A stretch of DNA of 64,000 bases from an uncultured Eubacterium sp. (GCA_947385775.1 CANDMI010000011.1:504-64503); one strand, 5' to 3'. Shown: positions 5,748 to 55,929, numbered from the stretch's first letter. Translations and numbers: made by a program. The notes: a model not told the origin generated them from the letters alone.

Positions 5748-6773
5748 TTAACTCAAACGCTCATAAAAAGAAGAAAATTCCTCTTCCCCCGCATTTTTCA
5801 TCGCCAGCTCTAAAAGCCCGCGCTGCTTCTCACAGCCCATGGCTTGCAGGTACTTATTTTCCCACAATTTCGGATAATGCTCCCGGATCATTTTCCCCAG
5901 GCGTTGGAAAATGGGATATGCGCCTGGAAAATTCCTGGATTTCATAAACATAAGTGTTTCATATAAAAAAGCATGTATAAAATAAAGCTCTATCTCGTCT
6001 TTATAATCCAAATAATAATGAGAGCCGGACATTTTTTCAAATAACCGGGTCTGCACCCCGATATGGTCGGTCAGCGTGTTCATTTGGTTCATTTCATGCA
6101 TCATCGTGCCGCTTGTATTGCACCGATAATAATAGAGCTTTTGCTTTAGCGTCGCAAACCGCTCCACCTCAAACATCAACGGATAGGTAAACATCGGCTC
6201 CTCGTAAAATACATGCTCGGCAAATTGGGCTTTTGACGCAATGATAAAATCCCGTTTATAAAATTTATTGGAAAAACCCGTCGTCATGACAAAGCTCGTT
6301 AAAAACCGGGCGCGTTCTTCCACCGTATGTATTTCCACCAACGTCTCTTCTTCGTTTTCCGTATAGGGCCGCAGGTCATGTTCTCCGAAATAACGGTACT
6401 GCTCAAATTGGACGATTTCAGCGTCTGTGCGCTTTGCATAAGCGTACAGCTTTTCATATGCAAATGGCTCTAACCAGTCATCCGCATCCAAAAACGACAG
6501 ATATTCCCCCGACGCATAAGGCATCGCTAAATTTCTCGCCCCGCCCTGCCTTTTGTTAACTGGAGATTTTATCACGATCACACTGTCTGGATACCGCTTT
6601 TCAAACGCAAGCAGCGTATTCCATGTTTCTCCACCGTCATCGGATGCGTCGTCTACAAATATCAGTTCCATTTCCTTCATTCCAATTGTCTGATCCGCCA
6701 ATGACGCGCAGCATTTCCCAAGCCATTTGGCGGCGCAGTAGCATGGTATGATCACGCTGATCTTCTTTCCCAT
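5748..6773 (-). CDS. Glycosyltransferase family 2
   Basis: KISVIIPCY...IFVDDASDD...GGARN...FLDADD GT-A motifs. Confidence 0.92.
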   Translation of the reverse strand: MGKKISVIIPCYCAAKWLGKCCASLADQTIGMKEMELIFVDDASDDGGETWNTLLAFEKRYPDSVIVIKSPVNKRQGGARNLAMPYASGEYLSFLDADDWLEPFAYEKLYAYAKRTDAEIVQFEQYRYFGEHDLRPYTENEEETLVEIHTVEERARFLTSFVMTTGFSNKFYKRDFIIASKAQFAEHVFYEEPMFTYPLMFEVERFATLKQKLYYYRCNTSGTMMHEMNQMNTLTDHIGVQTRLFEKMSGSHYYLDYKDEIELYFIHAFLYETLMFMKSRNFPGAYPIFQRLGKMIREHYPKLWENKYLQAMGCEKQRGLLELAMKNAGEEEFSSFYERLS

Positions 6774-7670: not shown

Positions 7671-7748
7671 ATCGAGTAAGGCTTCCTCCACTCGCCGCGC
7701 GACCCTCATGCTGCGCAGCAACAAACTTTCATATGCACCTTTGCGCAT
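7671..7748 (-). mobile_element. 78-nt miniature group IIC intron-like remnant (copy A)
   Basis: Minus strand begins ATGCGCA one base after the terminator T-tract and ends CCTTACTCGAT followed by T. Confidence 0.6.
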
Positions 7749-10266: not shown

Positions 10267-11844
10267 CTAATTTTCATACCTTTCAATTGTAATGTCGTCA
10301 TTCCCAGCTTCCACATACGCCTTTACGGCGTGATCGCAGCTAAGCTGCAAAGATGACTGGGTTTTTATAACTACACTTTCCAGCTTATTGTACTGGCATT
10401 CCACGCGGTAAAGGGCAGGCGACGCCACCTCCAAGCCGGTAAGCTCATTGTAGCTGCAATCCAGCAAATATAACTTCGGATAATCGTGGATTTTAAGAAC
10501 CGTAAGCCGGTTCTTAGCGCAATGCAATTCCCGCAGTTTCGGATTTTGACGAATGTCCAAATCCCCCAGCTGGTTCCCTTCACAATGCAGCTCCATCAGC
10601 TTCGGATTCCCGCGTGCTTTTAGGCTTGTAAGTTGATTTTGGCTGCAATGCAGATATTGCAGCTTCGGCTTTTGGCTGACATCCAGGCTGGTCAACGCAT
10701 TGCCATTGCACCGAAGCTCTTTCAATGCCTGGTTGTTGTCAATCTCTAAACTTGTCAGCCGGTTCCCGCCGCAATACAGCCTTTCTAACGCCGGATTGTT
10801 TCCCAGATCCAGCCCGGCAAGCTGGTTTCCGTCGCAATTTAAATATAACAGCTTTGGATTTTTAGTTGTGTCTAAGTTTGTCAGCAGGTTATTTTCACAC
10901 TCTAAACGCTCCAGCTTTAAAGCCTGGCTGACATCCAGACTGGTAAAGCGGTTTCCGCTGCAATTTAAAACCCGCAGCGCGGTATTTTTTCGGATATCTA
11001 ATTCGCAAAGACTGCCGTCAACACTATGTAAATACTTCAATGCCGGATTTTTTCTTAGATTTAAATCCGTAAGCGGATTTCCGCCACAATGAAGCTCCGT
11101 AAGCTTTGGGTTGTTCCTTAGCTCCAGGCCAGACAGCCCGTTATCAGAGCAGAGCAAGATCTTCAACGCCGGATTTTTTCTGATATCCAGCTTTTTCAGC
11201 CTGTTCGATTCACATTCCAGCCTCGATAACCTTTGATTCTTGCTGACATCCAGCTCCGTTAGCTGGTTGTTGGAACAGCTTAGCGTTTTTAACGCCGGAT
11301 TTTTCCCCACATCCAGGCTTTTTAGCTTATTATAATCACATTCCAGTTTCGTTAACGCCGGATTTTTGCTGACATCCAGCTCCTTTAATTTACAATAGCC
11401 GCATGTTAATGTCTCTAACGCCGTATTTTTACTTACGTCTAGGCCCGTGATCGGATTTCCGCCGCAAATTAACGTTTTTAATTCCGTAAACCCCGCAAAC
11501 GAGATGTTCCCGGACAGGCTGTATCCGCCCCAGCACAGGTAGGTCAGCCTTTTTTCTTTTCCGATCTTCGTCCATTTGTAACAGCTGCCATCCAGATCAT
11601 CCAGCATTTCCAGACTTTCCAGATCTTCTGGCTCCATATCTCCACGGCCCTTTTGCTCTTTTAAAATCTTTTGGATCAAAGCTACATCAGACGCATTTTT
11701 CTTTACGGCCGCGCTGGCTGGCAAGGGCAGTAGAAACGCCAAAAGCGCCGCAAAAACCGCCGCCTGACAAAGCGCCAAAGGCATCCGCCTGTTTTTTCTT
11801 CTTCTATTCAATTCCATCCATTTTTGCATAATCTCCCGCCCCAT
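10267..11844 (-). CDS. Secreted leucine-rich repeat protein
   Basis: Basic N-terminus and signal peptide (LLPLPASA) followed by about 20 tandem 21-aa repeats LxxLxCxxNxLxxLDVSxNxx. Confidence 0.92.
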   Translation of the reverse strand: MGREIMQKWMELNRRRKNRRMPLALCQAAVFAALLAFLLPLPASAAVKKNASDVALIQKILKEQKGRGDMEPEDLESLEMLDDLDGSCYKWTKIGKEKRLTYLCWGGYSLSGNISFAGFTELKTLICGGNPITGLDVSKNTALETLTCGYCKLKELDVSKNPALTKLECDYNKLKSLDVGKNPALKTLSCSNNQLTELDVSKNQRLSRLECESNRLKKLDIRKNPALKILLCSDNGLSGLELRNNPKLTELHCGGNPLTDLNLRKNPALKYLHSVDGSLCELDIRKNTALRVLNCSGNRFTSLDVSQALKLERLECENNLLTNLDTTKNPKLLYLNCDGNQLAGLDLGNNPALERLYCGGNRLTSLEIDNNQALKELRCNGNALTSLDVSQKPKLQYLHCSQNQLTSLKARGNPKLMELHCEGNQLGDLDIRQNPKLRELHCAKNRLTVLKIHDYPKLYLLDCSYNELTGLEVASPALYRVECQYNKLESVVIKTQSSLQLSCDHAVKAYVEAGNDDITIERYEN

Positions 11845-20871: not shown

Positions 20872-21060
20872 AAGCGCCCCAAAATGCCGTGCCCGAAATT
20901 TTGACGCCTAGCAAAGCTAGGTGGGTAACCTCAATGGAGCTTCTGCCTTCCACTGCGTAATGATGGCCTGACATCCGCGCCAAAATATTGGAATCCCGAA
21001 AACAAAAATGTAGGTTCAAAATATCGGGTTCTCGCACATTCCAGGGTAACGCTTTATCTA
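20872..21060 (-). ncRNA. ssrS: 6S RNA (probable)
   Basis: ~185 nt; 5' CCCUGGAAUG-UGC pairs with 3' GCA-CAUUUUGGG; UUGAACCUACAU and CCCACCU..GGCGUCAAAAUU segments resemble clostridial 6S RNAs as I recall them; strong promoter upstream. Confidence 0.75.
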
Positions 21061-25237: not shown

Positions 25238-26125
25238 ATGTATGCACAATTTTTTGGAAATTTTTTACTAAGCCGCAATGTTGTCACACCGCAACAGCTC
25301 ATCGCCGCCATCAATAAGGAATCCAGCAGCCGAATCAAGCTTGGCACGCTTGCTATGTATCATAATTTAATGACTGCAAATGAGATTGACGATATTGTGA
25401 TCGCGCAAACACATGAGGATAAGCATTTTGGCGAAATCGCGATCGAACGCCAGTATTTAACAGAAGAACAGGTAAACAGCCTTTTATCTGAGCAAAGCCC
25501 GGACTATTTGCTGCTGGGGCAGATCTTAATCGAAGAAAATATTTTGACCAATGCGCAGCTAGAAAGCCTGATCGTAGATTATGAATCGGAGCATGAGATT
25601 TATGACTTAGATCTCCAGGTTGACCAAAAAGAACAGGTTGGACAGCTTATCCGCCATTATTTCAAACTGGAAAATGTCGAAAACAGCGATCTATATCAGG
25701 CATATCTGACGCTTTTATTTAACAATCTGATACGCTTTATCGGCTCAGACTTTACGCCTATGACTCCGATTGCCTGTGAAGAATTTCCGACGCAGTTTTG
25801 TATTGTGCAGCATATTACCGGAAAGTACAACATCCTTTCCGCAATCGACATGGACCGCTCAATGGCAATCGAGTTTGCCTCCCGCTACGCGATGGACACG
25901 TTTGACGCATTTGACGAATATGTAGAAGCTTCTTTGGAGGACTTCTTAAACCTGCACAACGGGTTATTTACCGTAAATGTATCCAATAACCGCGCCGTAG
26001 AGCTGCAACTTACGCCGCCGGAAGCGCATGAAAAGGATCTGCTGGAATTTCCAAAAGGTTCCAACTCCTATATGTTCCCTATCCTTTATCCGTTTGGGAC
26101 GATTAATTTTATTTTATCATTTTAA
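25238..26125 (+). CDS. Protein with four MshEN-like repeats and a C-terminal CheX/CheC-like domain
   Basis: 24+5 residue periodicity over residues 5-115; SLEDFLNLHNG...TPP resembles E-x2-N-x22-P. Confidence 0.75.
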   Translation: MYAQFFGNFLLSRNVVTPQQLIAAINKESSSRIKLGTLAMYHNLMTANEIDDIVIAQTHEDKHFGEIAIERQYLTEEQVNSLLSEQSPDYLLLGQILIEENILTNAQLESLIVDYESEHEIYDLDLQVDQKEQVGQLIRHYFKLENVENSDLYQAYLTLLFNNLIRFIGSDFTPMTPIACEEFPTQFCIVQHITGKYNILSAIDMDRSMAIEFASRYAMDTFDAFDEYVEASLEDFLNLHNGLFTVNVSNNRAVELQLTPPEAHEKDLLEFPKGSNSYMFPILYPFGTINFILSF

Positions 26126-26158
26126 TGTAAGTTGGTTGTTGGTTTACATAATTTTTGA

Positions 26159-26213
26159 ATCGAGTAGGGGAACGCCCTTCTCCCCTACTCGCGCGCCGGG
26201 CGCCCGTGCGCAT
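26159..26213 (-). mobile_element. 55-nt miniature group IIC intron-like remnant (copy B)
   Basis: Minus strand ATGCGCACGGGCGCCCGGCGCGCGAGTAGGGGAGAAGGGCGTTCCCCTACTCGAT|T, directly after the thrC terminator. Confidence 0.65.
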
Positions 26214-26247
26214 AAAAAGCGGCGCAGTTTCCTGCGCCGCTTTTTAT
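26212..26247. terminator. Bidirectional terminator between thrC and the CheX-like gene
   Basis: ATAAAAAGCGGCGCAG-TTTC-CTGCGCCGCTTTTTAT perfect inverted repeat. Confidence 0.88.
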
Positions 26248-26254
26248 CATCTAT

Positions 26255-27742
26255 CTATCTGTCCAAAAATCTCATTACTTCCTCTGGCATTTTTTCCACC
26301 TCACAAACCGTATCGTGAAGCGTCGGCGCCGTACGGATCGACTCGATCGCCTGTGGGATTTTCACGCCCGAGATCCGGCTTAATTCATCCGCCAGCTCAA
26401 AATCCGGCTTGTCAGCGGACTTTGGCGCGATCGCATCCATAACGCTCCTTGTAAACTTAAATGGACTGGCCGTAGACACGATGACCGTTTTCGTATCGTC
26501 TTTCGTCCTCTTCTTATACTTTTGATAAACGCTCGCCGCCACAGCCGTATGCGTATCAAATACGTAATTATATTTCTCGTAATAATCCCGTATCGCCTGC
26601 GCCGTCTCCTGCTCGCTTGCATAACCGCCGCAAAAATCCGCCAGCTCTTTTTTCATATCCGACGTGATCTCATATGCCCCATCCTTAGAAAGCCGCTTCA
26701 TAAGCTCCGCGTTCTTTTTCGCGTCGTTTCCCGAAATATGGTAGATCAGCCGCTCTAAGTTGCTGGAGATCAAAATATCCATTGACGGGGATGAAGTCAA
26801 GATAAATTCGCGGTTTTTATCATATCTGCCCGTCTCAAAGAAATCATATAACACTTTATTTTCATTGGAAGCGCAGATCAGCTTATGAACCGGCACGCCC
26901 ATCCTTTTGGCATAATACGCCGCCAAAATATTTCCAAAATTCCCGGTAGGCACGACAAAGTTGATCTCCTCTCCTTCCAAAATCGCCCCCTGCGCCAGAA
27001 GCCTTGTATACGCGTACACATAATATACGATCTGCGGAACCAGACGGCCGATATTGATGGAATTTGCGGAAGAAAACTGATAGCCCTTCCCGTCCAGCTC
27101 TTTTTCCAGCTCCTTGTCCGCAAACATCCGCTTCACGCCGGTCTGCGCCTGGTCAAAATTCCCATGAATCCCTACGACATGCGTATTCGCTCCCTTTTGG
27201 GTCACCATCTGCTTTTCCTGGATCGGGCTTACGCCATTTTTCGGATAAAACACGACGATCTTTGTGCCCTTAACGTCCGCAAATCCAGACAACGCGGCCT
27301 TTCCCGTATCGCCGGAGGTCGCCGTTAAAATGACGATCTCGTTTTTCACCTGGTTTTTCTTTGCGGCTGTGATCAGTAAATGCGGCAGGATCGAAAGCGC
27401 CATATCCTTAAACGCGATCGTCGCGCCATGAAACAGCTCTAAAAACCACTCCTCTCCCGGCTTTGTCAAACGGGCGATCTCTTGACAGTCAAATTTTTCA
27501 TCGTAAGCCGCCTGGATGCAGCCCTCCAGCTCCTCTTTTGTAAAATCGGTAAAGAACAGCTTCATTACCTCATACGCCGTCCGCTGGTATGACATTTTTG
27601 CAATATCTGCAAGACTGACATCCAGCTTTGGAATGCGCTCCGGCACAAACAATCCGCCGTCGTCCGCCAACCCCTTTAAAACTGCCTGTGACGCGCTGAC
27701 CTTAACGCCCGCGTCCCGGGTGCTTAGATACATCAATTCCAT
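26255..27742 (-). CDS. thrC: Threonine synthase
   Basis: GLADDGGLFVP, ELFHGATIAFKDMAL (PLP Lys), ATSGDTG, SANSINIGR, VPTGNFGN, DTHTAVA. Confidence 0.97.
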   Translation of the reverse strand: MELMYLSTRDAGVKVSASQAVLKGLADDGGLFVPERIPKLDVSLADIAKMSYQRTAYEVMKLFFTDFTKEELEGCIQAAYDEKFDCQEIARLTKPGEEWFLELFHGATIAFKDMALSILPHLLITAAKKNQVKNEIVILTATSGDTGKAALSGFADVKGTKIVVFYPKNGVSPIQEKQMVTQKGANTHVVGIHGNFDQAQTGVKRMFADKELEKELDGKGYQFSSANSINIGRLVPQIVYYVYAYTRLLAQGAILEGEEINFVVPTGNFGNILAAYYAKRMGVPVHKLICASNENKVLYDFFETGRYDKNREFILTSSPSMDILISSNLERLIYHISGNDAKKNAELMKRLSKDGAYEITSDMKKELADFCGGYASEQETAQAIRDYYEKYNYVFDTHTAVAASVYQKYKKRTKDDTKTVIVSTASPFKFTRSVMDAIAPKSADKPDFELADELSRISGVKIPQAIESIRTAPTLHDTVCEVEKMPEEVMRFLDR

Positions 27743-27893
27743 AATTTTATCCTCTCTCATTTCCATTGCTTATCATTTTCAAAACCTGTTTATTCCGGGC
27801 GCGATTCTTTTCAAAATGACTTGCCCAACCAAAGCCGCGGCCTTCCATCAAAAAACATGCAAGCCATCTCACTCCCGGATATACACAATACTT

Positions 27894-50651: not shown

Positions 50652-50715
50652 ATGTGAATTTCATCAAATATAAATTTTATCACATGTAAATTTTATCAAA
50701 TGTAAATTTTATCAA
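50652..50715. repeat. Four tandem 16-bp repeats (consensus ATGTAAATTTTATCAA)
   Basis: Units at 50652, 50668, 50684, 50700; the last two are identical. Confidence 0.9.
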
Positions 50716-54582: not shown

Positions 54583-55929
54583 CTACCTACCTCTGTCGCC
54601 TAAGCGTTTTTCCGCTACCGCCTCCCGCAGCTGCTTTAAAAAAGTAAAGGAGCCAAACGCCAGCACAACGCCCTGGCTTCCCGCCGCGCAAATTGCCTGC
54701 GCCGCCGCCGCATTCATATCCGGCTCATAAAAAACCTCTGCCCGCCCATAATCCGATTCCATACGGGCGTAAAAACGCTTCGCCTCCGCCTCCAACACCT
54801 GACCATCCAGCGCCCTTTCGTTTCGCGGCGTTACGGCGATCGTAAGGCTTGCATACGGCAGCATAAGCGGCAATACCTTTTGATATTCTTTATCCGCCAG
54901 CATCCCGATCATATAAATAAGCTTCTTTTCCCGAAAGGCTTTCCTTTTGCGATCCCCCGGCGCATCGTCTGAAAAAAAACAATGCCGCACCGTTCGCGCA
55001 AGCTGCCTTGCCGCTCCTTCGTTATGCCCGCCGTCGATGTAAAAAGGCGGGTCGTCCAATATCTTTTCAAACCGCCCGGGAAGCCGCGCCATAAGCCCTG
55101 TCTTTACCGCGTCTTTCGAAAGAAAAACCCCCCGCTTTTTTAACAGGCGAAGCGTTTCTAAGGCGCAGGCAAAATTATCCCGCTGAAAGGAGCCTGTCAT
55201 GGAAGCATGAATCTCAAGCGGCGCATCCCCATCCTCCCAGTCTAAGAAAAACCGGCTGCCTGTTTCGTCATACTCATAATCCCGTATGGAATCCTGATCC
55301 GCCAGATAAAACGCGCTTCCCGCCCGCGCCGCCGTTTCTTTCAAAACGAAAAGCGCAGGCGCATCCTGTACGGCGCTAACGCATGGGCAGCCTGGTTTTA
55401 TGATCCCGGCCTTTGCCGTGGCGATCTCTTTTAACGTATCCCCTAAAAAATCCTTATGGTCAATGCTGATGGACGTAAACACGCTGCAAATCGGACGCTT
55501 TATCACATTCGTCGCGTCGTCCTTTCCGCCAAGCCCCGCTTCTATTACGGCGTAATCGCATTTTTTTTGAAAAAAATAACAAAACGCCGCCGCCGTTTCC
55601 ATTTCAAATTCGGATACGGATATTCCCTCTTCCCGCCGCATGTTTTCACATTCTTTTTGTACGTCTAAGAGGATTTTTGTAAAATCCGCTTCTAAGATCA
55701 TCTGCCCGTTTAACCGGATGATCTCTCGTTTTTCAAAAACCGCGGGAGACGCATAAGTCCCCACCCGGTAGCCCTGGGCGGATAAAACGGCGGAAATATA
55801 AGCTCCAACGGAGCCTTTTCCATTTGTCCCGGCGATGTGGATGACCTTTAGAGCGTCCTGGACATTGCCAAGGCGCGCCATCAGCCTTAAAATCCCATTT
55901 AAGGAATACGCCTTTTTTACCGTTCCCAT
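54583..55929 (-). CDS. folC: Folylpolyglutamate/dihydrofolate synthase
   Basis: [37 protein letters not shown]. Confidence 0.94.

Follow-up and report, generated by a model that had tools for sequence, protein, structure and literature searches.

In bacteria, miniature repeats are usually associated with a DNA transposase, and to our knowledge the known non-autonomous derivatives of group II introns keep the ribozyme. Mobile ORF-less introns retain the whole ribozyme, some of the ORF-less or fragmented introns need a protein in trans, and intron remnants are single, unique truncations. Group IIC introns recognise a stem-loop together with short IBS1 and IBS3 sequences, and their splice sites lie 3–11 nt after the stem-loop (PMC1702495).

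The element described here lies behind the threonine synthase gene thrC in a 64-kb stretch of DNA from an uncultured Eubacterium sp. (the window) and belongs to a repeat family that resembles several described systems in part. Like group IIC introns (B.h.I1 and O.i.I1, and those of the genomes G010, G090, G210 and G021), it is inserted in the same orientation at the same target behind a terminator, with T downstream; both stack head-to-tail and abut, and the last ~32 nt of the introns, i.e. the domain-VI hairpin and the terminus ...CUACUCGAU, are common to the two. Unlike these introns, the element lacks domain V, the domain I–IV ribozyme and an ORF, its first base is A and not G, its branch-site A is paired, it is 55–92 nt long as opposed to 0.45–1.9 kb, and its 5′ domain is not found in the introns examined. 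Like ORF-less and fragmented group II introns, the element is non-coding and keeps intron termini, but unlike intron remnants its family is amplified and structurally conserved and has a 5′ module that is not of the intron type.

A second parallel is that of SINEs and LINEs, in which a short non-coding element has the 3′ end and the target preference of an autonomous retroelement, as the element described here has those of IIC introns; subfamilies, bursts and many truncated copies are also seen in both. The parallel is incomplete in that the source genome has no partner, any RNA intermediate or internal promoter of the element is a presumed one, and its attachment would need ribozyme chemistry (reverse splicing) and not an endonuclease nick. 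The REP/REPIN–RAYT systems and the miniature IS200/IS605 elements are alike in being short, GC-rich extragenic palindromes at gene ends with a GTAG/CTAC core, in their hairpin-dependent biology and in having no terminal inverted repeats. The element differs from them in that it has no associated Y1 gene and forms no inverted doublets, and in its asymmetric, two-module organisation with a 3′ end identical to IIC intron ends.

The element at the thrC locus

Copy B, the element at thrC, is 55 nt long (ATGCGCACGGGCGCCCGGCGCGCGAGTAGGGGAGAAGGGCGTTCCCCTACTCGAT) and occupies positions 26159–26213 of the window on the minus strand; the next base is T at 26158. The span to which attention was initially drawn (26159–26247) comprises copy B and the thrC terminator. 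The sequence is as the original prediction described it: the element begins right behind the terminator T-tract of thrC, has the 3′ end ...CCTACTCGAT before a T, and contains a perfect hairpin of 11–12 bp, in which CGAGTAGGGGA (26191–26181) pairs with TCCCCTACTCG (26171–26161). This hairpin pattern occurs once in the 64-kb window and in none of 100 shuffled sequences, and terminator and copy B fold together into three consecutive hairpins (−61 kcal/mol, z = −7.9).

Copy B has four recognisable parts, all on the minus strand. The 5′ heptamer AUGCGCA (26207–26213) pairs through its GCGC with the GCGC at 26194–26191 in the closing helix of the 5′ domain. It is followed by a single GGGCGCCC (26198–26205), which comparison with full-length copies marks as a deletion junction. 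The P2 hairpin, CGAGUAGGGGA / UCCCCUACUCG (26161–26191), is domain VI-like with a paired branch-site UA. A 3′ tail of AU (26159–26160) completes ...CUCGAU, the same 3′ terminus as that of IIC introns in related genomes.

The insertion target of copy B is a bidirectional intrinsic terminator (26214–26245) made up of A5, a 9-bp GC stem, GCGGCGCAG-GAAA-CUGCGCCGC, and U5. It is common to thrC (26255–27766, minus strand; TIGR00260, 231.6 bits against a cut-off of 167.1) and a convergent gene for an MshE-related c-di-GMP-binding domain protein (25238–26125, plus strand), whose transcript can reach the terminator only by running through the element in antisense. The terminator at 26214–26245 is not listed by a consensus terminator scan, which we would ascribe to pairing between its U-tract and the A-tract before it, the arrangement of a bidirectional terminator. 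Since copy B is downstream of the thrC terminator, most thrC transcripts should stop before it. It would lie in the 3′ untranslated region of the convergent mRNA and would add two stable hairpins to the sequence behind the thrC terminator; as the convergent gene is transcribed through copy B in antisense, any effect is likelier to fall on the 3′ end of the convergent mRNA.

The exact 27 nt of the thrC terminator (GCGGCGCAGGAAACTGCGCCGCTTTTT) are also found behind unrelated genes of unrelated organisms (loci L061–L065, JGI metagenome contigs). Evidently, simple GC hairpin terminators converge.

The window contains one other member of the family, copy A, a worn T2-like copy behind another terminator (7671–7748, minus strand; 44.7 bits, E = 5e-8 with the covariance model R1 described below). 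The original prediction also counted a copy C and gave all three the same downstream base. T does follow both copy A and copy B, while no copy C was located in the 64-kb window by a search with R1 run with filters off, which returned A and B only. A weak match at 55306–55364 is not a family copy.

Three further features were observed in the window. A 6S RNA gene lies at 20872–21050 on the minus strand (RF00013, 66.8 bits). An array of at least seven units with a 126-nt period (10673–11472) probably encodes leucine-rich-repeat-type units, and three overlapping direct repeats with 16-nt spacing, ATGTAAATTTTATCA (50652–50714), look like iterons or operators.

A family of structured, gene-less elements

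The family was detected by short-word blastn and the covariance model R1. The original prediction had suggested looking for near-identical dispersed copies, and the source genome has them in number: blastn finds 89 loci, of which 52 are full copies, 23 retain only the 5′ part, 13 retain only the 3′ part and one is an internal fragment, and R1 gives 76 matches. The 5′-only and 3′-only partial copies do not pair up around any gene in the source genome. The copies fall into three subfamilies, T1 (28 copies), T2 (48) and T3 (13), with a mean pairwise identity of 0.84–0.88 within each. Full copies are 86–92 nt long, typically ~89 nt, and have no gene or ORF. Copy B matches R1, built from other copies, with 52.3 bits (E = 1.1e-9); its alignment spans model positions 1–88 and is missing 32 inner positions of the first stem.

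The 5′ domain of a full copy is made up of the sequence AUGCRCA, a P1 stem of 8–9 bp, a purine-rich asymmetric internal loop, an apical hairpin of 5–6 bp, the return strand of P1 and a GCGCG that pairs with the GCRC of the 5′ end. It is followed by the P2 hairpin (GAGUAGGG...CCCUACUC) and GAU. The internal loop reads AAGUGAAAUUU, AUAUGGAAGUUU or AGAUGAAAUAU in the source genome and mostly ARAGGAARUAUG in other genera. The sequence of the P1 stem varies among subfamilies with its pairing retained. The 5′ terminus is AUGCG or AUGCA, with A as the first base in at least 90% of copies.

This structure was evaluated on 47 aligned copies, in which 94.8% of cells are paired, as opposed to 29–46% when the partners are slid. 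Compensatory changes are found at 16 of the 25 pairs, and the covariation score is 0.395 versus at most 0.088. The 5′ heptamer AUGCGCA is nearly invariant in this set, and pairs 3:56, 4:55 and 6:53 are retained in 45–46 of the 47 copies. No Rfam family matches the element, either in the window at the gathering threshold or on five full-length copies at E up to 10. With no Rfam family and no such element found in a full-text literature search, the family appears to be undescribed.

One locus in the source genome (G000:C33:30167–30220) is a chimera, in which positions 1–28 of a T1 copy are joined to a T2-like 5′ segment (CGCAGGCGCGCATATGGAAAT). It could have formed by template switching or by nested insertion.

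Deletion origin of copy B

Full T1 copies, among them the reference copies C38:31914–32002 and C29:36878–36966, carry GGGCGCCC twice with 26 nt in between, while copy B carries it once. T1 copies read ATGCACAC-GGGCGCCC-AAGTGAAATTTGTCAGCAGAAGCTGAC-GGGCGCCC-GGCGCGCGAGTAGGG..., and copy B reads ATGCGCAC-GGGCGCCC-GGCGCGCGAGTAGGGG.... Judged by this alignment, copy B is a T1 element minus 34 nt, lost between the P1 arms. The arms are palindromic in T1 (GGGCGCCC), so that they double as direct repeats, and slippage or recombination between them in a T1-type copy would remove the 34 nt and leave a short GC hairpin followed by the domain-VI-like hairpin. The original prediction saw in the 55-nt form a minimal fusion of intron ends through two CCTAC tracts. 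The junction lies elsewhere, between the two GGGCGCCC arms of an ~89-nt element.

The short form of copy B is also present, identical and at the same locus, in a second sample (ERZ12802897, located by an exact-protein look-up), and its deletion is therefore not an assembly artefact. The same junction is found at C26:26691–26743 and in C40 and C60, and different internal deletions at C12:4264 (between two ATGCG repeats) and in C9 and C18. A 36-nt form consisting of ATGCGCA and P2 lies directly behind a terminator in another Lachnospiraceae MAG (L112, CARTDA010000001.1, near 5900–5928). With such varied deletions, the "minimal" forms are recurrent decay products of a two-module element and not a primary fusion. 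Copy B itself is a decayed relic, presumably now immobile.

Relationship to group IIC introns

The 3′ half of copy B is intron-like, as was predicted. P2 and the tail match the last 32 nt of the IIC intron of G090, a genome from a related genus, at 27 of 33 positions (shuffle p ~0.002), and the alignment covers domain VI end to end and stops at the last base of the intron. At the 3′ end of the family the match to IIC introns is 13 of 13. The IIC introns of the source genus end ...TCCCCTACTCGAT before a T; those of G010, G090, G210 and G024 end ...GAGAGGGGAGA-loop-UCUCCCCUACUCGAU before a U, and those of G021 and G014 end ...CUCCCUCCUACUCGAU. The systematic difference of P2 from the introns is an extra U, which changes GAG-A-GGGG to GAG-UA-GGGG and closes the branch-site bulge. 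The A at −7 is paired with this extra U, in keeping with the original description of a paired would-be branch A, and the UA pair is replaced by a compensatory C-G in four copies.

The 5′ part, which the original prediction also took for intron sequence, is different. Local alignment of the 57-nt 5′ domain with four IIC introns scores no better than shuffled sequences (p 0.19–0.98). The four introns begin GUAUGAC, GUGCGCC, GUUUGCC or GUGUGCC, and not AUGCGCA. Their first domain-I hairpins (e.g. CUGCGG-UGAAAGU-CCGCAA) contain no GTAGG/CCTAC, contrary to the assumption that this hairpin shares CCTAC with the intron 3′ end, which removes the basis of a CCTAC junction. The likeness that remains at the 5′ end is weak and consists of UGCG at positions 2–5, which fits GUGYG, and a short closing GC helix. 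In copy B this helix collapses to a 19-nt hairpin that recalls the first hairpin of the IIC intron in G021, GUGCGCC-UGGC-GGCGCAC. The loop GUGAAAU/AGGAAAU gives the impression, by eye, of the UGAAAGU loop of the first domain-I hairpin, or of a Shine-Dalgarno sequence plus AUG (domain IVa).

The catalytic core of an intron is absent from the element. Domain V (RF00029) has no match in the window at the gathering threshold and none on five full copies at E up to 10; the same model detects true introns in the source genome and genus. The domain I–IV scaffold models (RF02001 / RF01998) match neither the window nor the five full copies, and RF02001 does match real IIC introns in L038, L025 and L206. 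Without domain V or domain I, the element is unable to reverse-splice by itself. No full-length parent or IIC intron was found in the source genome. Its one domain V match (G000:C12:60600–61209) is a 5′-truncated fragment at a contig end, of the En-domain type and not IIC, which is made up of an En-domain intron-protein tail, domain V and a domain VI ending CCTACTCGAC, and lies behind a HemN-like radical SAM gene.

In G090:C1 (L197, about 139500–141330) and G210:C90 (L198) we observed a full-length IIC intron lineage whose 5′ end is non-canonical, GUAUGACGGGCAUGCCGUC and not GUGYG. It sits after hairpin-plus-T-rich sites.

Insertion sites

The element has a strong target preference. A hairpin of −8 kcal/mol or lower followed by a T-run precedes 56 of the 61 non-tandem copies with an intact 5′ end, as opposed to 4.4% of random sites, and the upstream hairpins of those copies have a median of −17.6 kcal/mol. 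T follows directly in 52 of 58 copies genome-wide. Seven further copies are tandem, located directly behind the CTCGAT end of another copy. Full copies are inserted in one orientation relative to the upstream terminator. The insertion sites of the element are an IIC-like target, as is the site of copy B, directly behind a terminator T-tract with T downstream.

Junctions with real introns are found in both directions. In G199:C67 (L206), the element occupies 1935–2024 of the minus strand, and an IIC intron (5′ GUUUGCCCAGCAUGGGCG...) starts exactly at its CTCGAT end and runs from 1934 downward. In L132 (1–160), the element starts exactly at the ...CUACUUGAU end of an IIC intron. At these two loci, IIC intron and element each supply the hairpin target for the other.

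The search for a precise empty site at thrC gave ten congeners with a different terminator and no element, and a metagenome scan with the thrC terminator returned only unrelated organisms with the same hairpin. Relatives of the carrier strain NK4A179 have no terminator at the tested site and hence no precise empty site. A possible AT...AT flank around the element is a candidate 2-bp duplication. The element has no terminal inverted repeats, as seen by comparing its 5′ end ATGCGCAC with the reverse complement of its 3′ end, ATCGAGTA.

The terminator upstream of one NK4A179 copy (L212, G042:C25:1140–1560) begins TTTATCGCAGATCC, which has 11 nt in common with the element 5′ end TTTATCGCAGAGCC. 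This likeness may be due to chance or may have been left by an earlier copy.

Distribution and recent movement

The element is present in 44 of 251 sampled Lachnospiraceae genera, several of which reach the scoring cap. Copy numbers per genome vary from 0 to over 17, and among 41 near relatives 12 carry 1–6 copies. An exact-pattern scan of species representatives gives more than 117 loci, nearly all in Lachnospiraceae of the mouse gut, rumen and human gut, and a viral contig collection contains one match only. Carriers include the cultured Oribacterium sp. NK2B42 and the strains NK4A179, IMSAGC_011 and A13_5.CF.DSS.

The clearest evidence of movement comes from Lachnospiraceae bacterium NK4A179 (G042, contig ATWC01000015), a cultured rumen strain, in which identical 90-nt copies are located behind at least five different terminators (C8:227–323, C17:55438–55533, C25:1303–1396, C38:25598–25693 and C12:72535–72631). 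A 100% identical copy is found at a non-orthologous locus of another species of the same genus (G327:C38:9327–9422). Identical copies at different loci and in a second species indicate that the family moved recently.

Candidate helpers

No helper gene, either for a reverse transcriptase or for a Y1 transposase, tracks the family. Neither an intact reverse transcriptase (RVT_1) nor an intact Y1 transposase was found in the source genome, whose matches to both are unrelated pseudogene fragments, the Y1 fragment being 57 codons long with stops. Of ten high-copy genomes, RVT_1 is absent from three and Y1_Tnp from five, and no element lies within 1.5 kb of the six Y1 genes checked. A link to RAYT/REP systems, which the original prediction had named as the finding that would speak against it, appears neither in the source genome nor in the high-copy genomes nor at the six Y1 loci. 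The closest IIC intron protein is found in 14 genomes, two or three of which also have the element, i.e. at about the background rate, and an IIC domain V lies within 8 kb of one of 117 element loci. NK4A179 has a non-IIC group II intron, a reverse transcriptase beside an RT-5 RNA motif and two Y1-like genes; none of these loci has sequence in common with its element.

Discussion

Copy B is a decayed member of a gene-less, non-autonomous mobile family of Lachnospiraceae that probably spreads, or spread, as an RNA passenger of group IIC introns. Mobilisation in trans by the IIC machinery is favoured by the combination of a common target, an exact tail and reciprocal junctions with real introns. 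The RNP of a helper intron would accept the domain-VI/3′-tail mimic of the element and attach the element RNA at a hairpin-plus-T-run site, and the helper reverse transcriptase would then copy the attached RNA. We know of no demonstration that an IIC RNP acts in trans on such a ribozyme-less substrate. Copies with the 5′ part only outnumber those with the 3′ part only (23 vs 13), and simple target-primed reverse transcription predicts otherwise.

A narrower version of this scheme is possible but should be regarded as tentative, namely that the family is a bacterial counterpart of SINEs, a ~90-nt RNA that has no ribozyme core and is a parasite of group IIC introns. A helper IIC RNP would take up the closed domain-VI mimic and the exact ...CUCGAU-OH tail in its active site and, by reverse splicing, join the tail to DNA at the site that the helper itself targets, a terminator hairpin with a T-run; the product would be reverse-transcribed by the helper. 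As for the 5′ domain, its conserved purine-rich loop might be a binding site for the intron protein or might base-pair with the T-run. Such parasitism would explain why the elements share sites and stack with IIC introns.

Movement at the DNA level is the best of the alternatives, although an unlikely one. The element would then be a mini-transposon of the REP/REPIN or IS200/IS605 "PATE" kind, moved by an HUH Y1 enzyme (RAYT/TnpA) or another transposase, with P2 resembling domain VI by convergence or secondarily. Several traits are consistent with this mechanism, namely a subterminal hairpin at either end without terminal inverted repeats, orientation-specific insertion beside a fixed short motif (the T-run) and the GTAG...CTAC core in P2; the AT...AT flank could be a 2-bp duplication, and the strain with identical copies, NK4A179, has two Y1-like genes. 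The hairpins would form in DNA too, and counts of G-U versus A-C cells give no clear strand signal. However, the only Y1 sequence of the source genome is the 57-codon fragment with stops, half of the ten high-copy genomes have no Y1 match, and no element is near the Y1 genes examined. Copies are single or head-to-tail and never form REPIN-like inverted doublets, and the 13/13 match of the 3′ end and the junctions common with IIC introns are hard to blame on chance.

It is very improbable that the copies are host-selected RNA modules that, for example, stabilise 3′ ends, reinforce terminators or act on IIC introns as landing pads or decoys, and that spread mainly by recombination. Their structure is conserved by compensatory changes, their position behind terminators is constant and P2 serves as the insertion site of an IIC intron in G199:C67, all of which such a role could account for. 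Against it, the distribution is patchy, with 44 of 251 genera occupied and 0 to more than 17 copies per genome, orthologous sites are empty in ten congeners, identical copies occupy loci that are not orthologous and occur in a second species too, decay or truncation affects many copies, and the copies lie past a terminator, where little transcription is expected.

The weakest reading, and one that we strongly disfavour, is the direct fusion of the ends of a full-length IIC intron, in place or in a single retrohoming event, by a deletion or an RT template jump between a CCTAC tract of the first domain-I hairpin and that of domain VI. It presupposes an intron starting AUGCGCACGGGCGCCCGGCGCGCGAGUAGG (first ~25 nt). 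In its favour are the match of the 3′-terminal 32 nt to the end of IIC introns from domain VI onward, the folding of the first 19 nt into a GC hairpin like that of G021 and the fit of UGCG at positions 2–5 to the GUGYG consensus. Against it, full T1 copies contain the entire 55-mer and, between two occurrences of the GGGCGCCC arm, another 34 nt, about 80 copies behind unrelated terminators have one architecture, the four IIC introns begin GUAUG, GUGCG, GUUUG and GUGUG with first domain-I hairpins free of GTAGG/CCTAC, and the 5′ domain has no significant similarity to introns.

For copy B itself the result is a modest one, in that its "minimal" look results from a deletion between hairpin arms. 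The family is of wider interest. It keeps only the last ~30 nt of an intron, yet dozens of its copies are located at IIC-type targets across the Lachnospiraceae, and in abundant bacteria of the gut and rumen it both marks many gene 3′ ends and modifies them. NK4A179 is cultured and has identical, hence recent, copies, which makes the question of mobility testable. If mobilisation by IIC introns is true, domain VI and the 3′ tail would be enough for acceptance as a substrate in trans, and bacteria would have SINE-like parasites of retroelements, of which this family may be the first hitch-hiker found on bacterial introns.
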